Source: a virus. Taken from it: a DNA stretch of 64,000 nt. The position numbers were made by a program, and so were the translations under genes. Below, one piece after another: positions 15,978-41,650 of the stretch. Positions within the stretch are counted from its first letter, which is position 1; each line of letters opens with the position of its first letter. The DNA is taken from positions 85,156-149,155 of the IMG/VR virus record IMGVR_UViG_3300017605_001304. The stretch is one strand, 5' to 3'. The notes beneath the pieces were generated by a model. It saw only the letters and a list, made by a program, of their open reading frames with translations, did not search any database and was not told the origin of the DNA.

Positions 15978-17612
15978 TCATGCACGCCGCAAAAGGCCCT
16001 TGATCATGTCGCGCTTCGTCTCCGGCTTCGGAGACGCGTCTTCGGTCAGCGGCTTCCGGTCCTGGGGACCATTGGGCAGCGCCGACTCGAATGCGGGCTG
16101 ATGCGGAATGCTCGGGTCATTGTTGTCACGCGGCTGCGGGGCCAGCTTGTGCTGACCACACTGTGGGCAGGAGATTTCCTGCGCCGTGGTTTCGGCCTCG
16201 GTCACATAGTGGCAGCCTGCACAGGCGACCTTGTGAGTCGAAACCTTCGGCTTGGCGTCGGTGGCAGCGCTCTCCCGCTTGGATCGGGCAGGGTTGAACG
16301 CCTTGACCTGGATCTCGATCATTTCATCGAGTTCAGCGATCGTCTTCTGCTTACGGAGCAGTGGCTCCACCCGTCGCAGGGAGGGGTTGTCCGCAAGAGC
16401 TTCACGAATGCGGCGCAGCAGCTTCGCTTCGTCGTTGCGCTTCACGAAGGCTTCGAGCAGAGACAGCGCCGAAGCGCGCTCCGTCCCGACCTTGTGCAGC
16501 TCCTTCAACTTCTCCGCGAGCTTCTGCTCGACCTTCCGCGTCCCGTCGATGAGCGCAGCCGCGAGCTTCTTGGCCGCCTCGAACTTGCCCTTCGGGACCG
16601 AATCGGTCGACTCCACCAGTCGCCGCTCAAGCTCGGCGATCCGGCGGTCGGCAATAGACAGCCGTGCAAACGTCTCGGCCAGGAGCTCCGAACCGGCCGA
16701 AGCCGTAGTCGCGCCCGAGAACGAGCCGTTGACGGTGACAGTGTTGGCAGAACTGGTCGTGACCGGCGGAGCAATGGCCGCCTGAACGCGCGCCGCGAAC
16801 GGCGCCGCCGTCTCGTTGTACGAGCGATCCCGTGCCGCAGACGCGGCCGTACGGGACGCCTGGATGACGGCCAGGGCTTCGTCACCGTCCTTCTTCAGGG
16901 ACGGCTGCTGCCCGAGCAGGGTCTGGATCTTCGACTCAGACTCAATGAGTTCGAGAACGAACTTGTCGAGCTGCTTCGTGTCCGTGGTGGCCAGGGCTTC
17001 CTTGATCTCGTAGGCCCGGACCTGAAGGCGCCGGATCTCCGCCTGCTTTGCGTCCATGCTGGACTCCATCTTGTAAGGACCGCTCAGACTCTCCGCGAGC
17101 CGCGGGTACGCGCCTTCCACGCTCGGGGTGGAGACGAAGTCAAAGGTGTCGAGCTTGAAGCTCGCTTCCTCGACGTACTCGACTCCGTCGCGCATGACCG
17201 ACGTGCCGCGCCCTCGCGAAGAGATCCCCACGGGAACTCCGGCGCGGAACAACTTCTGAAGGTGGATGCCAGGGACCGTGTCGAGGACGAGTGCTTCGCC
17301 CTGGACTTCGTCTCCCTCCAGCCACAGCTTCTTGACAATGTGTGAAACTTCGAGCAGGTGGGTCTGACCGCTGTCGGGATGCTCCACGACGCCGGTCATG
17401 CCGTTGTTACCCATCCGCTTCTGCTGCTCGGGGTTGTTGAGCTGGTTCTCCCACAAACCCCGGGTGTAGACCCGGCCGTTGCCGTTCTTCACCCCGCCCA
17501 TCTGGAAGCGGCCACGCACCGTCATCCAGTTGTTGTTATCGACCTTCTCTTGAAGGACTGTGAACTTGGCGGGAGCAAGATGTTCAATGAGAGGCTTGAG
17601 GTCGCCGCTCAT
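15978..17612 (-). CDS. Prohead protease (T4 gp21 family) fused to coiled-coil scaffold with Zn ribbon
   Basis: KNGNGRVY, GVVEHP (His), VGISSRGRG (Ser), DFVSTPSVEGAY; long helical C-terminal half; CAGC...CPQC; TAATG coupling at 17612. Confidence 0.9.
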   Translation of the reverse strand: MSGDLKPLIEHLAPAKFTVLQEKVDNNNWMTVRGRFQMGGVKNGNGRVYTRGLWENQLNNPEQQKRMGNNGMTGVVEHPDSGQTHLLEVSHIVKKLWLEGDEVQGEALVLDTVPGIHLQKLFRAGVPVGISSRGRGTSVMRDGVEYVEEASFKLDTFDFVSTPSVEGAYPRLAESLSGPYKMESSMDAKQAEIRRLQVRAYEIKEALATTDTKQLDKFVLELIESESKIQTLLGQQPSLKKDGDEALAVIQASRTAASAARDRSYNETAAPFAARVQAAIAPPVTTSSANTVTVNGSFSGATTASAGSELLAETFARLSIADRRIAELERRLVESTDSVPKGKFEAAKKLAAALIDGTRKVEQKLAEKLKELHKVGTERASALSLLEAFVKRNDEAKLLRRIREALADNPSLRRVEPLLRKQKTIAELDEMIEIQVKAFNPARSKRESAATDAKPKVSTHKVACAGCHYVTEAETTAQEISCPQCGQHKLAPQPRDNNDPSIPHQPAFESALPNGPQDRKPLTEDASPKPETKRDMIKGLLRRA

Positions 17613-19177
17613 TAGCGGCGCCTCAGTGACTCGACCCCCGTAGCCGGGGGATCGTTCATGCGGGCGGCCCATTCTCCCCACTTGCCGAAGTTCGCCTTCC
17701 GGCGCGGGGGACCGTTCGCCGCCCAGTGCTTGAATACGTCAGCGTTGAAGCGCGGGTTCTGCCGCCGCATGACTTCGCAAATCGCGTTGATTGTTTCCGA
17801 CGTCGCCTTGCTCGTGTGCAAAGCAACCGCGATTTCCTCGAAGTCCTTTTTCGAGAGGGCTTCCTTCTTCGGCTTGTTCTTATCGCGGATCGCCTTGAAG
17901 TCGATTTGCTTGCCGGTCCCCTCGCAGTCAGGGCAGTTGTCGCGGTGCACGCCCGGCTTGCAGTGACATGGCTTGCCCGTCTTCGGCTGGTAGGACTCGA
18001 AGGCCGGGGGCTTCTTCTCTTCAGGCTCGTCGCCATCCGGTTCCGCCTGGGGCTCCGGCGGCTCGTCACCCATCTCGTCCCCGTCCGGCTCCTCTTCGGG
18101 CGGCGGAGGCTGCTCCTCCAGGAAGTGCCCGAAGTCCTCAGCAAGTCCCTGGTCGTCCAGGAACTTGGTGATCAGCTCCATCGCATAGTCGTCGTCTGCG
18201 CCCGTCTGCGACTTGTAGTCGTCGACGATCGCAGCCGCCGTGATCGTTTCCTCGACGTCCGGAGGTCCGTCGGAAGGCGGATCAACTTCCGGCTCTTCGG
18301 TCGGCAGCGGCGGAGCGTCCGCATCTTCACCCAGCGCGGCGAGCACTCGCTCCAGCGAGGCGTTGCTCTCCAGCGCCGCGATCGCGCGGTCGATCTTCTC
18401 GTTCAACTTGACCTCTCCGCCGTAGGCGTTGAGCAGGTCCTTGGTCCACTCAGCCTGAGTGGACGGGATCTGCAGCGTGTTCGCCACCGACTCGATCGTC
18501 TGACCAGAACGGAACAAAGCCAAAGCCTGTCCGACCTGGGCGATCGAGAGCCCGACGCGTGCCGCAATCTGAGCGGCCATGATCGGCGGGTCGTATTCGA
18601 GGGACGCCTCTCGCAGCGCGTTCCCAGACTTAGGCACGAATGCCTCCTTTCTGTCCTTGGGAGGTGTCCGACCACGGCTCTTCGCGTATTCGGCATCGCG
18701 CCGCATCAGCTCCTTCCCAACAGCCGCCTGCTTTTTCTTCTGAGCAGGCGTCGGGGGCTTCTGCTGCTTCAGCGTTTGCATCGACTTCTGGAACGCCTGA
18801 CTGGGACGCACGGGCCACGTCCCACTTGCCGCCCTAGAGCCCCGAAGGGTCACGGGATCCCGCACAATGTGGAACGCTTTGTAGTAGAAGTTGTCAGGCC
18901 ACTGTCCGCGGTAACCGAAGTTCGCGCGGATGTAGCGTTGCAGGTAGCGCAGACCAGCGAGTCGAGACACGTGGCGCGCCAACCGGACAAACTTCTCGTA
19001 GACCCACCAGTGGACGGGGAACCAGTAATCCTTGCGACGCTTGCTGCCGAGGGTGAGGATCAACTCACCGACGTCGAGCGGATCAGACTTCGAGTAGGTG
19101 AGGCTCTTGATCCCCATCCACTCAGGTTGATCTCCCAGGATTTCAAGCAGCCCCTTCTCGGGGTTGACTGTGAGCAT
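17612..19177 (-). CDS. Modular head-associated protein (KTSC-like, HTH-like, acidic linkers, Cys cluster, KKDFxxIA...NPRF module)
   Basis: IKSLTY...ELILTL...VYEKF...YLQRYIR (KTSC-like); IAARVGLSIAQV; CHC...CPDCEGTG; KKDFEEIA...QNPRFNADVF. Confidence 0.6.
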   Translation of the reverse strand: MLTVNPEKGLLEILGDQPEWMGIKSLTYSKSDPLDVGELILTLGSKRRKDYWFPVHWWVYEKFVRLARHVSRLAGLRYLQRYIRANFGYRGQWPDNFYYKAFHIVRDPVTLRGSRAASGTWPVRPSQAFQKSMQTLKQQKPPTPAQKKKQAAVGKELMRRDAEYAKSRGRTPPKDRKEAFVPKSGNALREASLEYDPPIMAAQIAARVGLSIAQVGQALALFRSGQTIESVANTLQIPSTQAEWTKDLLNAYGGEVKLNEKIDRAIAALESNASLERVLAALGEDADAPPLPTEEPEVDPPSDGPPDVEETITAAAIVDDYKSQTGADDDYAMELITKFLDDQGLAEDFGHFLEEQPPPPEEEPDGDEMGDEPPEPQAEPDGDEPEEKKPPAFESYQPKTGKPCHCKPGVHRDNCPDCEGTGKQIDFKAIRDKNKPKKEALSKKDFEEIAVALHTSKATSETINAICEVMRRQNPRFNADVFKHWAANGPPRRKANFGKWGEWAARMNDPPATGVESLRRR

Positions 19178-33384: not shown

Positions 33385-33830
33385 TCCGCTTCAGGTCGAG
33401 TCGCGAGCTCGGCCTGTAACGCGTGAAGAAGAGCCTGCAGCTCCTTAACATCTTCGTCGCGGTCTGGCCACTGTGAGACTTCCTTGAGAAGTCGCTCGGC
33501 TTCTAGCTCCGCCTGAATGAGGTCACCGACTCCAAGATCTTCTAGCCGGTTGTTCGCAACGGCATAGAGGCCGGAGAACTGGCCGCTGTGCCAATATCCC
33601 GCGATGCGGTGGATGTTGCTGTCATGCTCAGTGCCTTTACGTGCTACAAATGCTGCGAACTCGTCGTCGCCGACCGTTCTGCCCTTGACTTTCTCTTGCG
33701 GAGCCAGCTCGTACGCTGCGAAGTCGTCGGGCTCGGCTGGATCATCGAGAAAGCCGAACTCAGGATCCCATCCCTCCAGCAAGATCTCCTTCACCCGCTT
33801 CAGGATCTCATCGGCGGTTCTCTGCGTCAC
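33381..33830 (-). CDS. Hypothetical protein with leader ending ILLE|G and IAxxWHxGQ motif
   Basis: GTG 33830 (or ATG 33842); TADEILKRVKEILLEG; HRIAGYWHSGQFSGLY. Confidence 0.6.
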   Translation of the reverse strand: MTQRTADEILKRVKEILLEGWDPEFGFLDDPAEPDDFAAYELAPQEKVKGRTVGDDEFAAFVARKGTEHDSNIHRIAGYWHSGQFSGLYAVANNRLEDLGVGDLIQAELEAERLLKEVSQWPDRDEDVKELQALLHALQAELATRPEAD

Positions 33831-34431
33831 TGCGAGCTCCATCCCACGCGGACAAGAAGCTCGTCCACGGGAAGTTGTTGACGGCCACGATGAACCCCTT
33901 GGGGATCTGGGGGAGCGTGGCGCGCTGCCCGACTTGCAGGGCAGCGAGACCTGGGGCGTAGTCCTTGGGGACGTCCGCCACGAGGAACGGGAACTCGGGA
34001 TGAAGAACACGTCCGACGCTGCAGGAGACGACGCGTTGAAACCGCGGCCGCAAGCCTTCCATGCGGATGCCGTCGACCAGCCGAATGCGGTTCTCGTTGC
34101 GCATCGCGAAGTTCGCGAAGATCCGTGTGCAGCCGACCTCGACCGAGCGCAGGAACTTCTGCTCGTCCAGCAGACGTAGCGCATCCGTGATGCGCTGCGC
34201 ACAAGCGCGGTCGACCTTGCCGAAGAACTGCTCGCAGTAGTACGCGAGCTGGCGAGAGTTGCGACCGGGGTGGCCGTAGAAGACGCCCTCTACAGCCACC
34301 CGACCTGCGAGCTCGTAGATCTCGGGCGACTCGATCGCTCCAGAGAGCTTGAGCCCAATGCCCAGCAGGCGGACGAGGCTCAGTTTCGGTGCGGCAGCAG
34401 TCTGCATGGAGGATCGAGGCTCCGGGTTCAT
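33808..34431 (-). CDS. Hypothetical protein
   Basis: 207 aa, GC3-biased, coupled to upstream stop. Confidence 0.6.
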   Translation of the reverse strand: MNPEPRSSMQTAAAPKLSLVRLLGIGLKLSGAIESPEIYELAGRVAVEGVFYGHPGRNSRQLAYYCEQFFGKVDRACAQRITDALRLLDEQKFLRSVEVGCTRIFANFAMRNENRIRLVDGIRMEGLRPRFQRVVSCSVGRVLHPEFPFLVADVPKDYAPGLAALQVGQRATLPQIPKGFIVAVNNFPWTSFLSAWDGARSDAENRR

Positions 34432-34850
34432 GCGTCGGCAGCAGTCTCAGCAGCCGCGGCGGCCGCGCGCTTGCGCAGCCACGCCACGACGGTCACGATG
34501 ATCAGCGTAGCGATTCCACCGGTCCCGTCATCGGGCGTGTCGCCTTCGGGCGGCTCGACCGGCGGACTCTCCGCGGCCGGCTCCGTCTTCGGCATGAGCC
34601 CGAGCGTCGCGTTGATCTGTTGCAGGTCGTCGTGCACGTGGGACATCTGCTCGTACGCCTGCGCCTTGGGGGCGCTCAAGTTCCACGTCAACGCAGCCCA
34701 GCCCGATTCTCCCGACGAGTTGACGTCGGTCTTCCAGGCGGGGCTGTCATACCGGCCCCAGTCATGGCCGTAGCCGACCGTGAGCGAGTCCGGGATAGCC
34801 GAGCCACATCCCCCGAGCAGGAGCACGGGGATAAGACTCAGCGCACGCAC
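34428..34850 (-). CDS. Lipoprotein with C-terminal TM helix; unimolecular spanin candidate
   Basis: MRALSLIPVLLLGG|C lipobox; beta-rich middle; Pro/acidic linker; GIATLIIVTVVAWLRKR; directly follows a holin-like gene. Confidence 0.55.
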   Translation of the reverse strand: MRALSLIPVLLLGGCGSAIPDSLTVGYGHDWGRYDSPAWKTDVNSSGESGWAALTWNLSAPKAQAYEQMSHVHDDLQQINATLGLMPKTEPAAESPPVEPPEGDTPDDGTGGIATLIIVTVVAWLRKRAAAAAAETAADA

Positions 34851-34851
34851 G

Positions 34852-35082
34852 TCAAGGCTTCTTCGGAGCGGCAGCCGTGTCCGCAGAGATCTTGGCGAGC
34901 GTCGCGCTCTTCTGGAAGTCGGCGATGCCCTGTGCGCCCATATAGACGAGCACGAGCTTGATGATCGAGTCCGTACGTTCGGCCGGGATGCCGAGCTTCT
35001 GGCCGTAGGCGGTGAGCACGAGGCCCACGATGGCCGCGATCGCCTTCTTGCTTTCGAGGAAACTCTTGAGCGTGTTCCACAT
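34852..35082 (-). CDS. Holin-like protein
   Basis: 76 aa; LESKKAIAAIVGLVL...IIKLVLVYMGAQGIAD (SRK-type start, 2 TM helices, basic tail). Confidence 0.6.
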   Translation of the reverse strand: MWNTLKSFLESKKAIAAIVGLVLTAYGQKLGIPAERTDSIIKLVLVYMGAQGIADFQKSATLAKISADTAAAPKKP

Positions 35083-35106
35083 GCGGAGGTTGTCCTTGTG
35101 AAAGAC

Positions 35107-35165
35107 CGGGGCCCCGACCGGCGGGGTGCCAAGCCGGAGGAGCAGCTTGACGGGTCGGGGCCCCG
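35107..35165 (-). promoter_or_regulatory. Long GC hairpin upstream of holin (terminator/attenuator candidate)
   Basis: 13-bp perfect inverted repeat CGGGGCCCCGACC / GGTCGGGGCCCCG with inner CAAGC/GCTTG stem; followed by TCTTTC on the minus strand. Confidence 0.5.
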
Positions 35166-35173
35166 TGAGACCA

Positions 35174-38100
35174 TCAGTCCTTGGTGCCGAACATCTTGCG
35201 ACCGAGCACGAGGTCGATCGCATTCGCGTCAAGACCGAAGTACGGCGCGATCTTGAGCGAAGGGATGCCCTGCTCGCCCATCCCCTGCAGAGCCGCGAAG
35301 CCCTGCTCGGAGAACTCCATCTCGTAGCCCGCGGCGCGCAGCCGCGACGTCGCCTGAGCTGCGGAACCGGCCGGACCTTCGAGCGGCGCACCGCCCTGGC
35401 TCGGGTTCTGGCCCGCCTCTTCCTCGCGCAGCTCCTTCAGCACTTCCTTCACGTCGGGATCGCGCAACAGGTCCGCGGTGATGCTCTTCGGCCGCGTCCC
35501 TTCGCGCATGCGGAACTTGCGGTTGATCATGCGTGTTGCGAGCCCCTCTTCGTTGGATTCGGCCACGTTGGCCGGTGCCGCATCTTTGTTCTCGTACGAC
35601 GGATGCGGGTACTGGAACATCGCCAGCGCCTTCGGGCCGCCGTGGCCCGCCTGCGCCGCCTGATCACGGAAGTGGCTGTAGAGCTCTTCGAGCTCCTGCT
35701 TCCACGTGTAGAACTCCGGCCGCATCTTCACGCCGGGCTTCTGCTCGGCCTGCTTCATGCGGCCGAGCATGTCCTGAATCTCACCCATGATTCGCTGGAT
35801 CTGGTCCGGCTGCATCTTGCTCGGGCCGTACTGCGCGTACATGCCGAGGCCGGTGGTGTTGCCGAGGTGCCAGTCCTTCGCGAGCTGCAGCACGCGCTGG
35901 TCGCGCTTCATGCGCTGCTCGACCGCGAAGTTGTGGTCCTGCACCTTGCGCTGATCCGCGGCCGCAGCCCGACGCTGCTTGAACCAGTCCATGCCGCGCT
36001 GGATCAGGCCCGGCCGCGGCGGCGCCGAGAAGGCGTTGGCCGCCTGCGCGACGTCGACGTGAGCGCCCGGCGGCTTGGGCGCCGGGATGCCGGGGTCTGT
36101 CTGATTGGCCGTCGCAAGGTTCGGGTCCATGCCGACGTTGCCGCCAGGACGGACGGGGACCGGGCCCTTCGGGGGGCCTCCGAACGCCTTATCGATCCCC
36201 TGCGCCATCTCTTCCGGAGACCCCTTCTGGGGCGCTGGCTGGCCCTGAGACGGGTCGAACGAGAAATTGACGCCCTGGGCATCCCCGCTCGGCTGACCCT
36301 TCTGGCGGGCCCGCTGCTGCGCCATGGCCGCAGCACCCTTCAGAACGCTCTGATCCCGCGCCATCGGGCTCTTGTAGCCGCCCGAGGAGCCCTTACCGCG
36401 CATCCGGTACTGCCCGGCCTCGTCCAGCTCTTCCGCGGGCGGATCGAGCGGGAGGTCGATCAGGGCCGGACCGAGGTCCCTGGCACGCGCCAGGAAGGCC
36501 GGAGCGGTGTCCTGCTTCGTGTGCGCGAGCGCGATGACGTCTCGCTCTTCCGTGAGCCCGAAGACCACGTAGGGCCGCACGGTGAGCTCGACCGGCTCGC
36601 CCTCGGCCGTGAACGCCTGGAAGCGCTGCTTGGGCGTGATGATCGCGCCCTCAGCCACGGCGGGGTCGTTGGTCGGCTGGTCGGCCTTGGCGAAGTACGC
36701 CAGCGCCTGCCACGCCTTGTGCTCGATGTCGATCGTGGCGCGGACGCCCGGCTTGATCCCGTGCTTCAGGAGGGCGCGGCTCAGGTAGGGCCGCAGCACC
36801 TGGGACATGTCCGGTTCCTGGCCCTCGACCGCGTTCGGAAGAGCCGGCGGCCACTCACCGTAGACGCCGGACTTCACCTCGCTCACGATCTCGTCGATGG
36901 TGTTCTCGTTGCGCAGGTCCTGCGAGACGCCCGGCGGCATCTCGGAGTGGTCGACGCCGAGAGCCGGCGGAGCGTTCGGGTCGATCGCCCCCATGGGGTC
37001 CTGCGCAGGCTCCTGCCCAAGCAGGTCGTTCGCCTCGGTCTTCCCCGCCGTCTGCTTCGCACGCGACTTCGCGATCGCGTTCTGCGCGTCCTTCTCCAGG
37101 CCCTTGCTCTTCGCGTGGCCAAGAAGGTCCGCGAGCTCTTCGTGATCTTCCGGCGATGCGTCACCGCTCGCCGTCTTCTTCCCGAGCTGGTGGATCTTGA
37201 TCAGCAGGTCGGCCTCGTCGCGACCAACGAAAGCGCCGGACGCGGTGGACGTCGCTTCGTCCTTCTCGTCAGCATCGTCGGGGTGGTCGTGGTACGTGCC
37301 GCTGTCCGGGCACTCTGCGTCAACACACTGACCCGGCCCCTCGTCTGTTGATCCGTTGAGCGCGCGACGCCGCTGTCGCGCCGCGACATCTGCTTCCTTC
37401 CTCGCCTGCGGGAAGAGCTCCCTAGTCCGGCGCTTCTTTGCCTCCTCAACGACTTCACTCTCGGACTTCTTATGCTGCGATTCCGTATGTCCGCAGTCAC
37501 AGGTGTGATCGCCGCTGCCGTCGTCGTCATCATCCATGAACTTGTCACAGTCGCACTGCGTACACTTGCCGTAACCCTCGGTGACAACTTCACTCTCGGA
37601 CTTCTTGTCGCAGTTGCAGCAGCCATCCGCACAGCGGTCGCACCGCTGGCACAGATCAGCGGCACTCTGTTCCTTAGCGCCGCATGCCTCACACTTCTTG
37701 CTGCTCTCGTCCGAGCACTTGCAGGGGTCCTTGATGTTCACGCCCGGCTTGAGTTTGCCGCAGGTCTTGCAGCGCGGCCGGGACGTCGGAACGGAGTCCC
37801 GGACGATCTTGTACTCAGTCTTCAGCGTGAACGGGCCGTGCGCCTCGGCCGTCCGCGGGCTCCAGGAGCCGGCGAACTGGACCATGTGCTCGGCCTTCTC
37901 GACCGGCAGGACGAAGCCCGGACGATTCATGGAGTCGAAGTAGGGCTTGCCGAGGCCCCACGCGTACCCGAAGGACTCCGCCATCTCGACCGCACGCTCG
38001 CCCGTCTCGTTCGGGAACATCAGGAACGTGAAGCCGTCCGGCAGGCGCGTGAGCTCATCGCTCGCTTCGACGGGAGCCTCGGACAAGACCGTCCCTTGAA

Positions 38101-39853
38101 AGCGACCACGCACGACCTCGCAGGCCGTTTCGTAGTAGCCCTTCGAGACGTTGACGGTGTAGACGCGCGGGTCGCCCTGCTGCACTTCGAGCTTCTCGCT
38201 CGGGCGACGATGCGCCGGCAGGGTCTTGTACCACTCCTCGACGCGCGAGACCTTCGAGCGTGACTCGAACTGGAGCTCCGCGCTCTCGATGTGCTTCACC
38301 GCGGTCGCACGCAGGATGTTCGTCGCGGCCTGAGCCGGCGGCGCCAGCGCCTTGTGCAGCGGGTTCAGCGGGTGGTCCGTGTGCGACGTCTGCAGGAGGC
38401 CCGGCTTCGCCTCGTAGCGGCCGAAGTTCTCCTGGCTCGTCGCCTTGACCGCGCCGGTCTTCACGTTCTTGACGGTGATCGTGGCCGGCTTGCCCGGCAA
38501 CTGCTCCGACACCGCCGAGATGATCCAGTCGTCCTGCTGCGGATCGTCCTTCAGCTTGACCCGCTCGCCGATCTTCGGCGGAGCGTTGGGGTCGAGCGGG
38601 ATGTCCTCGTGGACGTCGGACTCCTTCTTGTCCGACTTGACGAACGGCTTCGGGCTCTCGCGACAGGTCTTGCAGTAGCGCTTGCCCATGAAGAAGCCAG
38701 TCTTCGCAGGCAGCGGTCCGCCGCACTGATCGCACTTCCTCTCGTCCTTCGCCTCGTAGGAGAGGATCTCCCCGTTCGTGAAGTCGTCGGGGTTGGTGAG
38801 GTCTTCCTTCTTCCGTGGCGCGTCGGCCGAGCGCTCGTATTCCTGGATGCGCTGGTCGGTCCAACCGTGGTCGCGCAGGAACTTCCGTGCCTGCTCCTTG
38901 TTCATGCCGCCCATGACGTTCGCTGCGGCGTCGTTCATCAGCAGCGTGCCCTTCGCGATCTTGAGCTGATGCTTCTCGGGCACGCCCTCGTCCAGCACGG
39001 GCTCGTTCAGGAGGCGGCTGTAGACGCGGCGCTCCTCGACGCGCGAAAGCGTCGTCATCTTCTGGCAGCCCTTGCAGACCAGCCGCGCACGGTGCTCGCG
39101 CATCAGCATGATCGCTTCGGACTTGCACTTGTCGCAAGACACGTCCTGGACCTGGACCGGCTCGTGGCCCTCCTTGTCCTCGGACTTCTCCTTCACGCGG
39201 ATCTGGAAGGTGCCGAGCGCGACGTCGTCCTTGGGACGCTTCAAGAGCTCCGCCACGCCCTGACGGTCGAGCATCGCGAGCGCCTGCTCGACCTTGTCGT
39301 CGGTGATCTGGTCGTTCAGGTAGACGTAGACGTCGTCGGTCTTGTCGTCGATCTCGACGTCGACGAGGTTGGCATCGAGGCCCGCCTCGACCAGCGCCGT
39401 CATGACGGAGGTCGCGAGCTCGTCGACGTCCTCCTTCAGGACCGGCGCGCCGTTCATCAGGCGCGAGATGTTCGCGACCGAGACGTCCTCGCTGTAGAGC
39501 TTGATGATGGCCTGCAGGCGCTCGCTCAGTGGACGTGGAGCCCCCGCCCGCATGACGCGGATCGCCTCGACCGAGTCCATCACCGAGGTGAAAGACTCCG
39601 CCTTCGGCTTGTCGGTGAGACGCTCGTACTCGGGGGACTTGCGGAAGTCATCGAGAACGTGACGACGGTTCTTGTGGACGAGGTCGTCGTTCTGCGACCA
39701 CTTCTGGCCGAACTTAAAGCCGTTGACCGACTTGAAATCGGCCTGTGGAGACTTGGGCATGCGATAGACCGGCTTGTCGGTCTCGAAGTCGACATCGAGC
39801 TCCAAGAACTCCATCTCTTCCCTATCCATGTACGCAAGCTCCAACGGCGCCAA
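35174..39853 (-). CDS. 1559-aa modular protein (many small Zn-finger, SH3-like and helical modules); putative head polyprotein
   Basis: At least six Cys clusters and short modules separated by ES/EA/EG junctions; Q/P/G-rich C-terminal part. Confidence 0.75.
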   Translation of the reverse strand: MAPLELAYMDREEMEFLELDVDFETDKPVYRMPKSPQADFKSVNGFKFGQKWSQNDDLVHKNRRHVLDDFRKSPEYERLTDKPKAESFTSVMDSVEAIRVMRAGAPRPLSERLQAIIKLYSEDVSVANISRLMNGAPVLKEDVDELATSVMTALVEAGLDANLVDVEIDDKTDDVYVYLNDQITDDKVEQALAMLDRQGVAELLKRPKDDVALGTFQIRVKEKSEDKEGHEPVQVQDVSCDKCKSEAIMLMREHRARLVCKGCQKMTTLSRVEERRVYSRLLNEPVLDEGVPEKHQLKIAKGTLLMNDAAANVMGGMNKEQARKFLRDHGWTDQRIQEYERSADAPRKKEDLTNPDDFTNGEILSYEAKDERKCDQCGGPLPAKTGFFMGKRYCKTCRESPKPFVKSDKKESDVHEDIPLDPNAPPKIGERVKLKDDPQQDDWIISAVSEQLPGKPATITVKNVKTGAVKATSQENFGRYEAKPGLLQTSHTDHPLNPLHKALAPPAQAATNILRATAVKHIESAELQFESRSKVSRVEEWYKTLPAHRRPSEKLEVQQGDPRVYTVNVSKGYYETACEVVRGRFQGTVLSEAPVEASDELTRLPDGFTFLMFPNETGERAVEMAESFGYAWGLGKPYFDSMNRPGFVLPVEKAEHMVQFAGSWSPRTAEAHGPFTLKTEYKIVRDSVPTSRPRCKTCGKLKPGVNIKDPCKCSDESSKKCEACGAKEQSAADLCQRCDRCADGCCNCDKKSESEVVTEGYGKCTQCDCDKFMDDDDDGSGDHTCDCGHTESQHKKSESEVVEEAKKRRTRELFPQARKEADVAARQRRRALNGSTDEGPGQCVDAECPDSGTYHDHPDDADEKDEATSTASGAFVGRDEADLLIKIHQLGKKTASGDASPEDHEELADLLGHAKSKGLEKDAQNAIAKSRAKQTAGKTEANDLLGQEPAQDPMGAIDPNAPPALGVDHSEMPPGVSQDLRNENTIDEIVSEVKSGVYGEWPPALPNAVEGQEPDMSQVLRPYLSRALLKHGIKPGVRATIDIEHKAWQALAYFAKADQPTNDPAVAEGAIITPKQRFQAFTAEGEPVELTVRPYVVFGLTEERDVIALAHTKQDTAPAFLARARDLGPALIDLPLDPPAEELDEAGQYRMRGKGSSGGYKSPMARDQSVLKGAAAMAQQRARQKGQPSGDAQGVNFSFDPSQGQPAPQKGSPEEMAQGIDKAFGGPPKGPVPVRPGGNVGMDPNLATANQTDPGIPAPKPPGAHVDVAQAANAFSAPPRPGLIQRGMDWFKQRRAAAADQRKVQDHNFAVEQRMKRDQRVLQLAKDWHLGNTTGLGMYAQYGPSKMQPDQIQRIMGEIQDMLGRMKQAEQKPGVKMRPEFYTWKQELEELYSHFRDQAAQAGHGGPKALAMFQYPHPSYENKDAAPANVAESNEEGLATRMINRKFRMREGTRPKSITADLLRDPDVKEVLKELREEEAGQNPSQGGAPLEGPAGSAAQATSRLRAAGYEMEFSEQGFAALQGMGEQGIPSLKIAPYFGLDANAIDLVLGRKMFGTKD
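37452..37606. repeat. 20-bp direct repeat at 37452-37471 and 37587-37606 inside the 1559-aa gene
   Basis: ACTTCACTCTCGGACTTCTT, encoding the KKSESEV linker twice. Confidence 0.85.
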
Positions 39854-40795: not shown

Positions 40796-41650
40796 TTATG
40801 CGACGGCTCCATTCTGGAGGCCGTGCTTCTTCAAGTCCTTCCACCCGAGCTGAGTCTTCTTCGCGGCGTAGCGCTCCGGCCGGACCTGCCGGCTGACGTT
40901 CACGTAGCGGCGCTCGATCTTGTCGTAGACCCACTCGCTCGACGGGTTCGGCTTCGTCAGCCACATCTCGACCAGCAGGGTGCCGTACACGTTTCGCTGC
41001 CCGAGCTTCGGCTGCTTGGGGAACGGCCGGAAGTCGACGCGGTACCAGATGCCGTCCAGGAGCTGGAACTCCGTCTTCGCATCGACTGCGATCTGGGTCA
41101 CCCGTGCCGGTGGTGGCCGGCCGAGCGTCTTCCCCCAGACCGTCTTCTTGTTCTCCGTCAGGACCCCGGTCTTGGGGTGCACGTAGAAGAGCCAGAGGCT
41201 GCCGTCGACCGGATACTCCGCGCCCGAGGCGCCCGACGAACTCCGGAAGCTGCGGAACGCGTGCTTGTCCGAGATCCAGACCTTCTTCGTCTGCTTCTCG
41301 ATGAACGTGTTCACGGCGACGTAGCCGTCCACGTGCTCGCGGATGTGCCGCTGCTGCGTGCTGTCGAGCTTCACGTGCTTGCTGATCTCGGCCTGGACCT
41401 TGTTCCACGGCCTGCCGCAGTTCGTGCGGAGGAAGCGGATCAGCGGACTCAGGTGGTCCGAGAGCTCCTTCTCGCCGCCGGCCGCCTTGTACGGCTTGCG
41501 CATGCCCTCGCGGGTCGGCGGGTCGTGCCGCTCGTCAGCCTCGTCGTCGTCCCCGAGCTTGCGCTTGAAGCGGACGTGCCGGTACTTCAGGCCGCCGTAA
41601 CCCGGGTGACGCGGACGCTCTGTAAGGACCTTGCTGAAGTCAGCGCGCAC
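40796..41650 (-). CDS. Basic conserved-looking hypothetical protein
   Basis: KVLTERPR...KELSDHLSPLIRFL..NCGRPWNKV..EI...HIREHV...FYVHPKTGVL. Confidence 0.75.
   Translation of the reverse strand: MRADFSKVLTERPRHPGYGGLKYRHVRFKRKLGDDDEADERHDPPTREGMRKPYKAAGGEKELSDHLSPLIRFLRTNCGRPWNKVQAEISKHVKLDSTQQRHIREHVDGYVAVNTFIEKQTKKVWISDKHAFRSFRSSSGASGAEYPVDGSLWLFYVHPKTGVLTENKKTVWGKTLGRPPPARVTQIAVDAKTEFQLLDGIWYRVDFRPFPKQPKLGQRNVYGTLLVEMWLTKPNPSSEWVYDKIERRYVNVSRQVRPERYAAKKTQLGWKDLKKHGLQNGAVA

Follow-up and report, generated by a model that had tools for sequence, protein, structure and literature searches.

The window analysed here is a 64,000-nucleotide stretch at the end of a 149-kb virus contig with an estimated completeness of 70% (IMG/VR record IMGVR_UViG_3300017605_001304, positions 85,156 to 149,155 of that record), and the subject of this report is a giant gene that occupies positions 35174-39853 of the window. 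An earlier note made from the letters alone had described a 1559-amino-acid (aa) open reading frame (ORF) at this place as a polyprotein of tiny modules, delimited by glutamate junctions and diced by a gp21-type protease. The interval holds indeed a single ORF of 1559 codons, which runs on the minus strand and is open from a TTG codon at 39853 to the stop codon at 35174-35176, and all of the peptide strings quoted in the note were found in its translation. A plus-strand reading of the same interval was rejected because it contains many stops. Since the third-position guanine-plus-cytosine (GC) content reaches 0.88 in a genome of 65% GC, the ORF is clearly coding. Translation, however, is likely to start at the ATG codon at 39829 (MDREEM...), which is preceded by a GGAG motif 9 nucleotides (nt) upstream and yields a product of 1551 aa, and this length matches that of the database copy of the protein, P0002 (1551 aa).

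Architecture and relatives of the protein

The gene encodes a multi-domain, acidic protein of 170 kDa (16.0% Glu+Asp, 13.5% Lys+Arg, 8% Glu), which was modelled with AlphaFold2 in two parts. Model 1, covering residues 9-700 and built from a 39-row alignment (mean predicted local distance difference test score (pLDDT) 74.5), revealed five confident beads separated by segments with pLDDT <50. Model 2, covering residues 691-1559 and built from an alignment of three sequences only (mean pLDDT 47), contains in this order a Cys-rich stretch of zinc knuckles, an acidic region that includes a short helical bundle, domain H, a disordered Gly/Pro/Gln-rich stretch, long helices and a helix-turn-helix-like end. 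The features of the gene, listed from its 5' end, are the following.

35174..39829 (-): whole gene from the probable ATG (1551 aa plus stop), as indicated by the GGAG motif, the length of the database copy and the third-position GC
39800..39829 (-): acidic decapeptide MDREEMEFLE at the N-terminus, with L as the next residue; possibly, but only conjecturally, a capsid-targeting-like leader
39179..39682 (-): N-domain, residues 58-225, helices and a ferredoxin-like subdomain (alpha+beta); heads a modular protein family
39005..39166 (-): zinc ribbon 1 (C240, C243, C260, C263) and a helix, residues 230-283, from AlphaFold2
38822..38983 (-): module C, residues 291-344, a mobile module of 55 residues folded into four helices, pLDDT ~95
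38597..38806 (-): low-confidence linker, residues 350-419, with zinc ribbon 2 (C374, C377, C394, C397) and the first DPNAPP; variable with respect to P0003
38420..38596 (-): Tudor/SH3-like beta-barrel bead, residues 420-478, from AlphaFold2
37865..38290 (-): domain F, residues 522-663, a pair of ferredoxin/ACT-like alpha-beta units that flank a conserved LSE|A loop
37484..37771 (-): zinc-knuckle region rich in Cys, residues 695-790, differing among homologues, low pLDDT
37584..37606 (-): 23-nt direct repeat copy 2, encoding KKSESEVV, then TE|G
37449..37471 (-): 23-nt direct repeat copy 1, encoding KKSESEVV, then EE|A
36449..36991 (-): domain H, residues 955-1135, with the second DPNAPP at its start, helical at 983-1057 and ending at ELDE|A (LTE|A in P0003)
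36044..36448 (-): disordered Gly/Pro/Gln-rich stretch, residues 1136-1270, pLDDT <40, poorly conserved
35177..36043 (-): domain I, residues 1271-1559, long helices at 1281-1401, then disorder, and at 1498-1549 a small terminus resembling a helix-turn-helix

A search of 1.8 billion representatives and 5.8 billion clusters retrieved only three full or partial homologues, i.e. P0003 (1412 aa, 36% identity), P0005 (1131 aa) and P0006 (912 aa). The N-domain, zinc ribbon 1 (whose four Cys residues are invariant among four homologues), domain F, domain H (pLDDT 55-75) and domain I (helices with pLDDT 60-78) form a backbone common to the family, with domains H and I being kept in P0003 and P0005, and the content between these blocks differs from one member to another. 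The N-domain alone heads other modular proteins rich in zinc ribbons (P0012, P0013, P0025, P0039, P0060, P0082, P0103 and P0118). P0006 is encoded on a 63-kb IMG/VR contig, G001 (IMGVR_UViG_3300045950_000243), whose protease-scaffold protein is 38% identical to that of the phage studied here, and on this contig the N-domain/zinc-ribbon and domain F are split over two adjacent genes. The domain F gene of G001 (L006:5355-8906) encodes a protein of 1183 aa with an N-terminal AAA_33/Zeta-toxin-type P-loop kinase and is located directly downstream of the N-domain gene and ~9 kb upstream of the prohead protease, a layout that resembles that of the window. When IMG/VR was scanned with profiles, the whole-family profile found one locus and the N-domain profile none. 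Stand-alone or shorter forms of residues 955-1559 were not found, BLAST detected no internal repeats at the protein level, and no paralogous modules occur elsewhere in the phage genome. By its sequence, the protein is a family-specific backbone with acquired mobile mini-modules, namely module C, the Tudor/SH3 barrel and the zinc knuckles, and it represents a mosaic multi-domain architecture borne by a phage (IMG/VR virus record).

The whole protein matched no family in Pfam, PHROGs or NCBIfam, where only sub-threshold rows to PASTA and to a phrog (E 0.027) were obtained, and a catalytic domain was not found by these three, by PDB sequence search or by fold searches, in agreement with the absence of a large catalytic domain pointed out previously. 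Because the AlphaFold2 beads came with no family match, the description of the protein as beads on a string without an enzyme is confirmed for its N-terminal half. The proposed chain of tiny modules does not extend to the rest, since five beads account for the first ~700 residues and about half of the protein consists of conserved blocks (955-1135 and 1271-1559) and long disorder. No match to the whole protein, to module C or to the N-domain was detected by tblastn against 50,697 cultured phage records, and the ESM Atlas gave no usable match to the protein. The PDB sequence search, for which profiles A1 and A2 and the last 74 residues of the protein served as queries, returned a 'CAP repeat' entry (30 columns, E 2.8e-4) and low-scoring rows to the Fas death domain (E 0.06-0.1), all of which were judged non-informative.

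Fold matches were restricted to generic small folds, with weak echoes of nucleic-acid-binding WYL, Tudor and PWWP proteins, and Foldseek found nothing with the low-confidence C-terminal model (residues 691-1559). WYL-type regulators (DriD, PafBC and BrxR) appeared as the top Foldseek rows at E 2.6e-3 to 1e-2 with a root-mean-square deviation of ~20, and they were missing from the best 50 rows of a second fold search (VIA). WYL regulators combine a WYL (Sm/SH3-like) barrel and a WCX domain with an N-terminal winged helix-turn-helix. In the giant protein, a disordered linker of 40 residues parts the Tudor/SH3 barrel from domain F. The modules are probably binding modules rather than enzymes. The sequence DPNAPP occurs twice, at ~38582-38599 (-) just before the SH3-like bead and at 36971-36988 (-) at the start of domain H, P0003 has it as well (IDPNAPPALG), and the variant DPNAPG is present in the kinase/domain F protein of G001; it could be a linear docking motif.

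Module C and the prohead protease

A gp21-type protease, the presence of which the earlier note had assumed, is encoded in the genome. Peptidase_S77, the T4 gp21 prohead protease family (PF03420), was detected above the curated cut-off (E 3.3e-16) in the window ORF at 15978-17681 (-), a 567-aa protease-scaffold fusion, and the adjoining gene encodes a T4-like major capsid protein (phrog_138, E 3e-62). By its genes, the phage is an uncultured, high-GC phage with a T4-type head. The giant gene is co-oriented with these head genes and lies 17.5 kb upstream; the interval contains tail-fibre-like genes. The protease-scaffold fusion possesses its own C-terminal zinc ribbon (CAGC...CPQC), and a candidate maturation site (...ERLAE|SAQW) is present at the N-terminus of the capsid protein.

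Module C is absent from P0003, P0005 and P0006 and, within the family, exists only in the ORF studied here. A search with the single sequence retrieved 226 representatives at E <=1e-3, nearly all of them matching the 55-residue module C, a module C profile retrieved 283 longer proteins at E <=1e-5, and the module was found at 77 loci of IMG/VR. More than 200 protein clusters contain it, in more than 200 architectures, but neither Pfam nor the cultured phage genomes do. Dozens of the matches are stand-alone genes of 50-100 aa, many of them of 50-70 aa, and at least 25 proteins end 0-3 residues from the terminal ...[LFIW]E of the module. The suggestion that modules might be found as separate ORFs was borne out for the first one listed in the note (GVPEKHQLKIAK...), which stands alone in dozens of clusters.

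Among Pfam domains, Peptidase_S77 alone was found repeatedly together with module C, in six proteins (P0153, P0168, P0184, P0185, P0195 and P0199). In these fusions the protease is N-terminal and module C is located inside or at the end of a C-terminal extension, which reaches ~900 residues in the larger proteins, and LEE|S-type sites bracket the module in most of the six. Most of the extensions are enriched in the motif [VLI]xE[ASG] (z 3-5; z 1.9 in the 268-aa P0168). From their sequences, the six proteins look like protease-scaffold-cargo fusions. A further link between module C and head-core genes was observed in a 279-kb contig (IMGVR_UViG_3300014208_000025), where P0238 (L013:2605-3534), a 309-aa protein that combines module C with an SH3-like bead and whose N-terminus reads MKLSQLKTLVKNVIKE...SIAE|E, is encoded between a T4-type portal and an S77 protease in the order T4 portal, 298-aa gene, P0238, 370-aa gene, S77 protease, 269-aa gene. 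In T4, the interval between portal and protease is where the prohead core proteins are encoded. P0126, another protein with module C, is encoded between a gp13-like neck gene and sheath and baseplate genes. A Pfam-detectable S77 protease was present in 16 of the 29 large IMG/VR contigs with module C, a co-occurrence that is suggestive, not exclusive.

Glutamate sites accompany module C in other proteins. In fusion proteins, [VLI]xE[ASG] was found <=20 residues upstream of the module in 48 of 149 cases (12% expected) and at its C-terminal edge in 51 of 156 (9% expected), about a three-fold excess over the remainder of these proteins. Five giant proteins that contain module C, hereafter the jointed giants, showed an excess of the motif along their whole length.

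P0004, 2693 aa: [VLI]xE[ASG] 35 found, 9.2 expected
P0104, 1445 aa: [VLI]xE[ASG] 12 found, 3.4 expected
P0126, 1379 aa: [VLI]xE[ASG] 13 found, 4.2 expected
P0102, 1217 aa: [VLI]xE[ASG] 14 found, 4.5 expected
P0093, 1074 aa: [VLI]xE[ASG] 11 found, 4.0 expected

For the last four of them the z values were 3.7-4.9. P0004 (L007:10001-18082 and L008:1007-9088), which carries module C at 907-963 and has a PA14-domain gene downstream, contains [VLI]DE[ASG] 16 times where 0.8 are expected, with ~16 copies of the joint ES[VLI]DE|[AS] between unrelated modules. The upstream flank of module C reads ESVDE|AELSVPQQHQ in P0004 and ESITE|GMSVPEQHA in P0126, and in the ORF studied here VLDE|G stands ahead of the module and RIQE|YE|R behind it. 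In the latter protein, only this VLDE|G and the duplicated KKSESEVVxE linker look typical of the class. The two copies of the 23-nt repeat encoding the linker share 22 of 23 nt, lie 135 nt apart and bracket a 45-residue zinc-knuckle unit that is missing from P0003. Such an arrangement is characteristic of the insertion of a cassette at a standard linker.

These observations might be accounted for if module C were an undescribed, widespread head-core/cargo domain of T4-type and larger phages that is loaded into the prohead, sometimes as part of the protease-scaffold, and freed by cleavage after Glu, the giant ORF being an old family member that captured beads by recombination at standard linkers; taken as a whole, this proposal is possible but rather unlikely. 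Were it true, phages would swap injected mini-proteins as cassettes. With 55 residues, hundreds of relatives, no annotation, fusions to proteases and bracketing sites, module C would offer a small and well-behaved substrate for the idea of cargo loading and processing. The module C-prohead protease fusions and the DNA-level linker repeat are the most useful new facts of the analysis.

Glutamate sites and the role of the giant protein

The explanation that we tentatively favour, without calling it probable, is that the giant protein is head-loaded cargo trimmed at few sites rather than diced throughout, a reading that follows from the location of module C within head-assembly genes elsewhere. 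The protein would be made late, together with the virion genes, and would be taken into the prohead core, where a small number of junctions between beads would be cut behind Glu by the Peptidase_S77 prohead protease. The strongest candidates among these junctions are E289|G, which precedes module C, the two KKSESEVV linker sites E759|G and E804|A, and E1145|A; the N-terminal decapeptide would perhaps also be removed, and not every bead boundary would be cut. The trimmed protein would afterwards accompany the DNA into the host cell, as do T4 Alt, the T4 internal proteins and the 'polyvalent' proteins. If giant modular proteins of this kind are head cargo, the injected repertoire of uncultured T4-type phages would be much larger and more shufflable than model phages suggest.

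Packaging, cleavage and delivery of the protein are what we infer, and it resembles none of the known systems in every respect. Injection of proteins that enter with the phage DNA and disarm the host is known classically from the T4 internal proteins and Alt. As in the system of IPI-III and Alt, both an S77 protease and a T4-like capsid protein are encoded by the phage studied here, the N-terminus of its giant protein shows a Glu at position 10 as does the T4 capsid targeting sequence, and relatives of module C sit in the portal-protease cluster and inside protease-scaffold proteins. The T4 internal proteins, however, are small, basic, single-domain and cut once, whereas the giant protein is acidic, multi-module and of 170 kDa, has no targeting tag shared across the genome and no significant excess of sites, and no sequence homology to T4 internal proteins or Alt was found in PHROGs or by tblastn against the cultured phages. 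S77-type proteases of T4, phiKZ, 201phi2-1 and SPN3US cut after Glu (PMC5694885, PMC9026906). The ejection/inner-body proteins of the latter three phages are likewise large, internal to the head and trimmed after Glu (S/A-X-E) at redundant propeptide sites, but their P3 residue is small and not V, L or I as in the sites considered here, and they have been verified by mass spectrometry; the giant protein has no homology to them. Polyvalent proteins of phages and conjugative elements, some of which are known or predicted to be processed and virion-borne (Iyer, Burroughs, Anand, de Souza, Aravind 2017, PMC5512222), also carry many independent, shuffled domains on one phage polypeptide, and the G001 relative in which domain F is fused to a Zeta-toxin/AAA_33-type kinase is polyvalent-like. 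Nevertheless, polyvalent proteins are defined by enzymatic or anti-restriction domains (methylases, helicases, ADP-ribosyltransferases, peptidases), none of which was detected in the giant protein, whose beads are tiny generic folds with no embedded peptidase.

The N-terminal decapeptide was compared with the capsid targeting sequence of T4, MKTYQEFIAE (PMC8442874). In MDREEMEFLE|L the tenth residue is Glu and the core fits EF[IL], both as in the T4 sequence, and FLELD is conserved in P0003. No capsid-targeting-like leader is shared across the phage genes, the pattern being present in this gene only, and a general leader model was dropped because most of the stand-alone module C genes lack a leader and begin with the module itself. 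The decapeptide is, for these two reasons, only a lead.

A number of results weigh against processed head cargo, and most of them concern the Glu sites. The motif [ILVY]xE[SAG] occurs 8 times in the protein versus 5.2 expected from shuffled sequences (p 0.14), and [VLI]xE[ASG] occurs 8 times versus 4.5-4.6 (z 1.6-1.7, p ~0.1), with no enrichment of the latter in P0003, P0005 or P0006. When AlphaFold2 confidence was used as a boundary map for residues 1-692, 7 of 16 E[ASG] sites fell in low-confidence segments (25% background, p 0.075), 6 of 16 lay <=8 residues from a bead edge (22% background, p 0.11), and none of the three [VLI]xE[ASG] sites was in a low-confidence segment. The two longest linkers (350-419 and 481-521) contain no hydrophobic-x-E-small site, and the docking peptide ESxRxIAxRLF, sought as a regular expression, is absent from the protein. 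The motifs in the module linkers could, in the whole class, be recombination joints or helix caps instead of protease sites. In addition, 5 of the 12 complete genomes with module C have no Pfam-detectable S77 protease, the immediate neighbours of the giant gene are small genes of no recognisable function with no recognisable head genes among them, and the C-terminal half of the protein was modelled poorly (residues 691-1559, mean pLDDT 47). The motif itself appears to be meaningful in this phage, since among 128 genes ranked for [VLI]xE[ASG] the protease-scaffold came 1st (9 versus 2.3 expected, z 4.8) and serves as a good internal control; the giant ORF ranked 8th (z 1.7).

The same numbers are compatible with chance in a protein with 8% Glu, as would be expected if the giant protein were a non-virion intracellular hub whose small binding modules tether nucleic acid or host and phage proteins, an explanation that we regard as possible though doubtful. 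It would agree with the absence of a capsid-targeting tag common to other genes of the genome, with the weak fold similarity to WYL, Tudor and PWWP proteins, which bind nucleic acid, with the joining of domain F to a P-loop kinase in G001 and with a neighbourhood of small genes and an AAA ATPase, typical of accessory regions. Arguing in the opposite direction are the occurrence of module C, elsewhere, in fusions with prohead proteases and in the portal-protease cluster, the duplication of class-type linkers at the DNA level inside the gene, and the co-orientation of the gene with the structural genes.

Full dicing, i.e. a head-packaged polyprotein cut by the gp21-type protease at nearly every bead into micro-effectors or core peptides, as proposed in the earlier note, is improbable for this gene. 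Such proteins appear to exist, as judged from the motif excess of the jointed giants, which share module C with the giant protein, and a suitable protease is encoded in the genome. In the jointed giants, however, almost all modules are set off by a regular joint (z 4-9, and up to 17 for [VLI]DE[ASG]), whereas the giant protein, with z 1.6-1.7, is mostly a conserved family backbone with long disordered regions; it has in common with them the ES..V.E|[GA]-type linker, here duplicated at the DNA level, and is at best a peripheral, hybrid member of the jointed-polyprotein class. Of its eight sites, E156 ends a helix inside the folded N-domain and E592 lies in the loop of domain F, the other six being located in short connections or low-confidence regions. 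Most of the joints listed in the note do not fit hydrophobic-x-E, P3 not being hydrophobic in SYE|A, RYE|A, SDE|S and KTE|A, and most Glu sites are not kept in homologues. Speaking for the junction idea, LDE|A at 1143-1146 corresponds to LTE|A in P0003, and LSE|A of domain F to LTE|S in P0003 and LGE|A in P0005. Neither the delimitation of modules by Glu junctions (8 sites versus 4.5-5.2 expected, p 0.09-0.14) nor an enrichment of Glu-small sites at bead boundaries (best p 0.075) could be upheld, and for this gene the idea of dicing into many micro-effectors finds no support. The note's own caveat that junctions may arise by chance in a Glu-rich protein proved apt, the joints being mostly as chance gives them, and, with no motif excess overall or at boundaries, the result comes close to the absence of enrichment by which the note had said its claim would fall. 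A literature search found no description of protease-jointed phage polyproteins or of DUF5661, although the library was limited and this is weak negative evidence.

A virion part outside the head (fibre, whisker or tail accessory), with a helical C-terminal rod decorated by beads, is very improbable, because, although PKD/Big/beta-helix and other large fibre-like genes lie downstream on the same strand and a pectate-lyase-like gene upstream, long helices (1281-1401) are present in the model, and P0004 and P0126 are encoded near PA14, sheath and baseplate genes, no match to tail, fibre or tape-measure families was obtained in Pfam and PHROGs, no trimeric coiled-coil or beta-helix repeats were seen, and the disordered Gly/Pro/Gln-rich stretches and intracellular-type zinc ribbons fit such a role poorly.

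Neighbouring genes

The genes flanking the giant gene at 33808-34431 (-) (207 aa) and 40796-41650 (-) (284 aa) matched no family, and their homologues, 37% and 42% identical, respectively, are located beside P0003. Synteny is kept on both sides of the giant gene in the P0003 contig, and the three-gene neighbourhood is therefore conserved. Scans around the giant gene for the T4 late-promoter motif TATAAATA, for sigma-70-type promoters and for terminators were uninformative.

The ORF at 34428-35174 (-) overlaps the stop codon of the giant gene. Its first ~108 codons are rich in Arg and Ser and look like a wrong frame, the real part being probably ~34428-34850. A family search gave no match for this ORF, which contains a lipoprotein-like signal with a lipobox from VRALSLIPVLLLGGCGS and a hydrophobic helix at its end (IATLIIVTVVAWL), a layout that resembles that of a unimolecular spanin.

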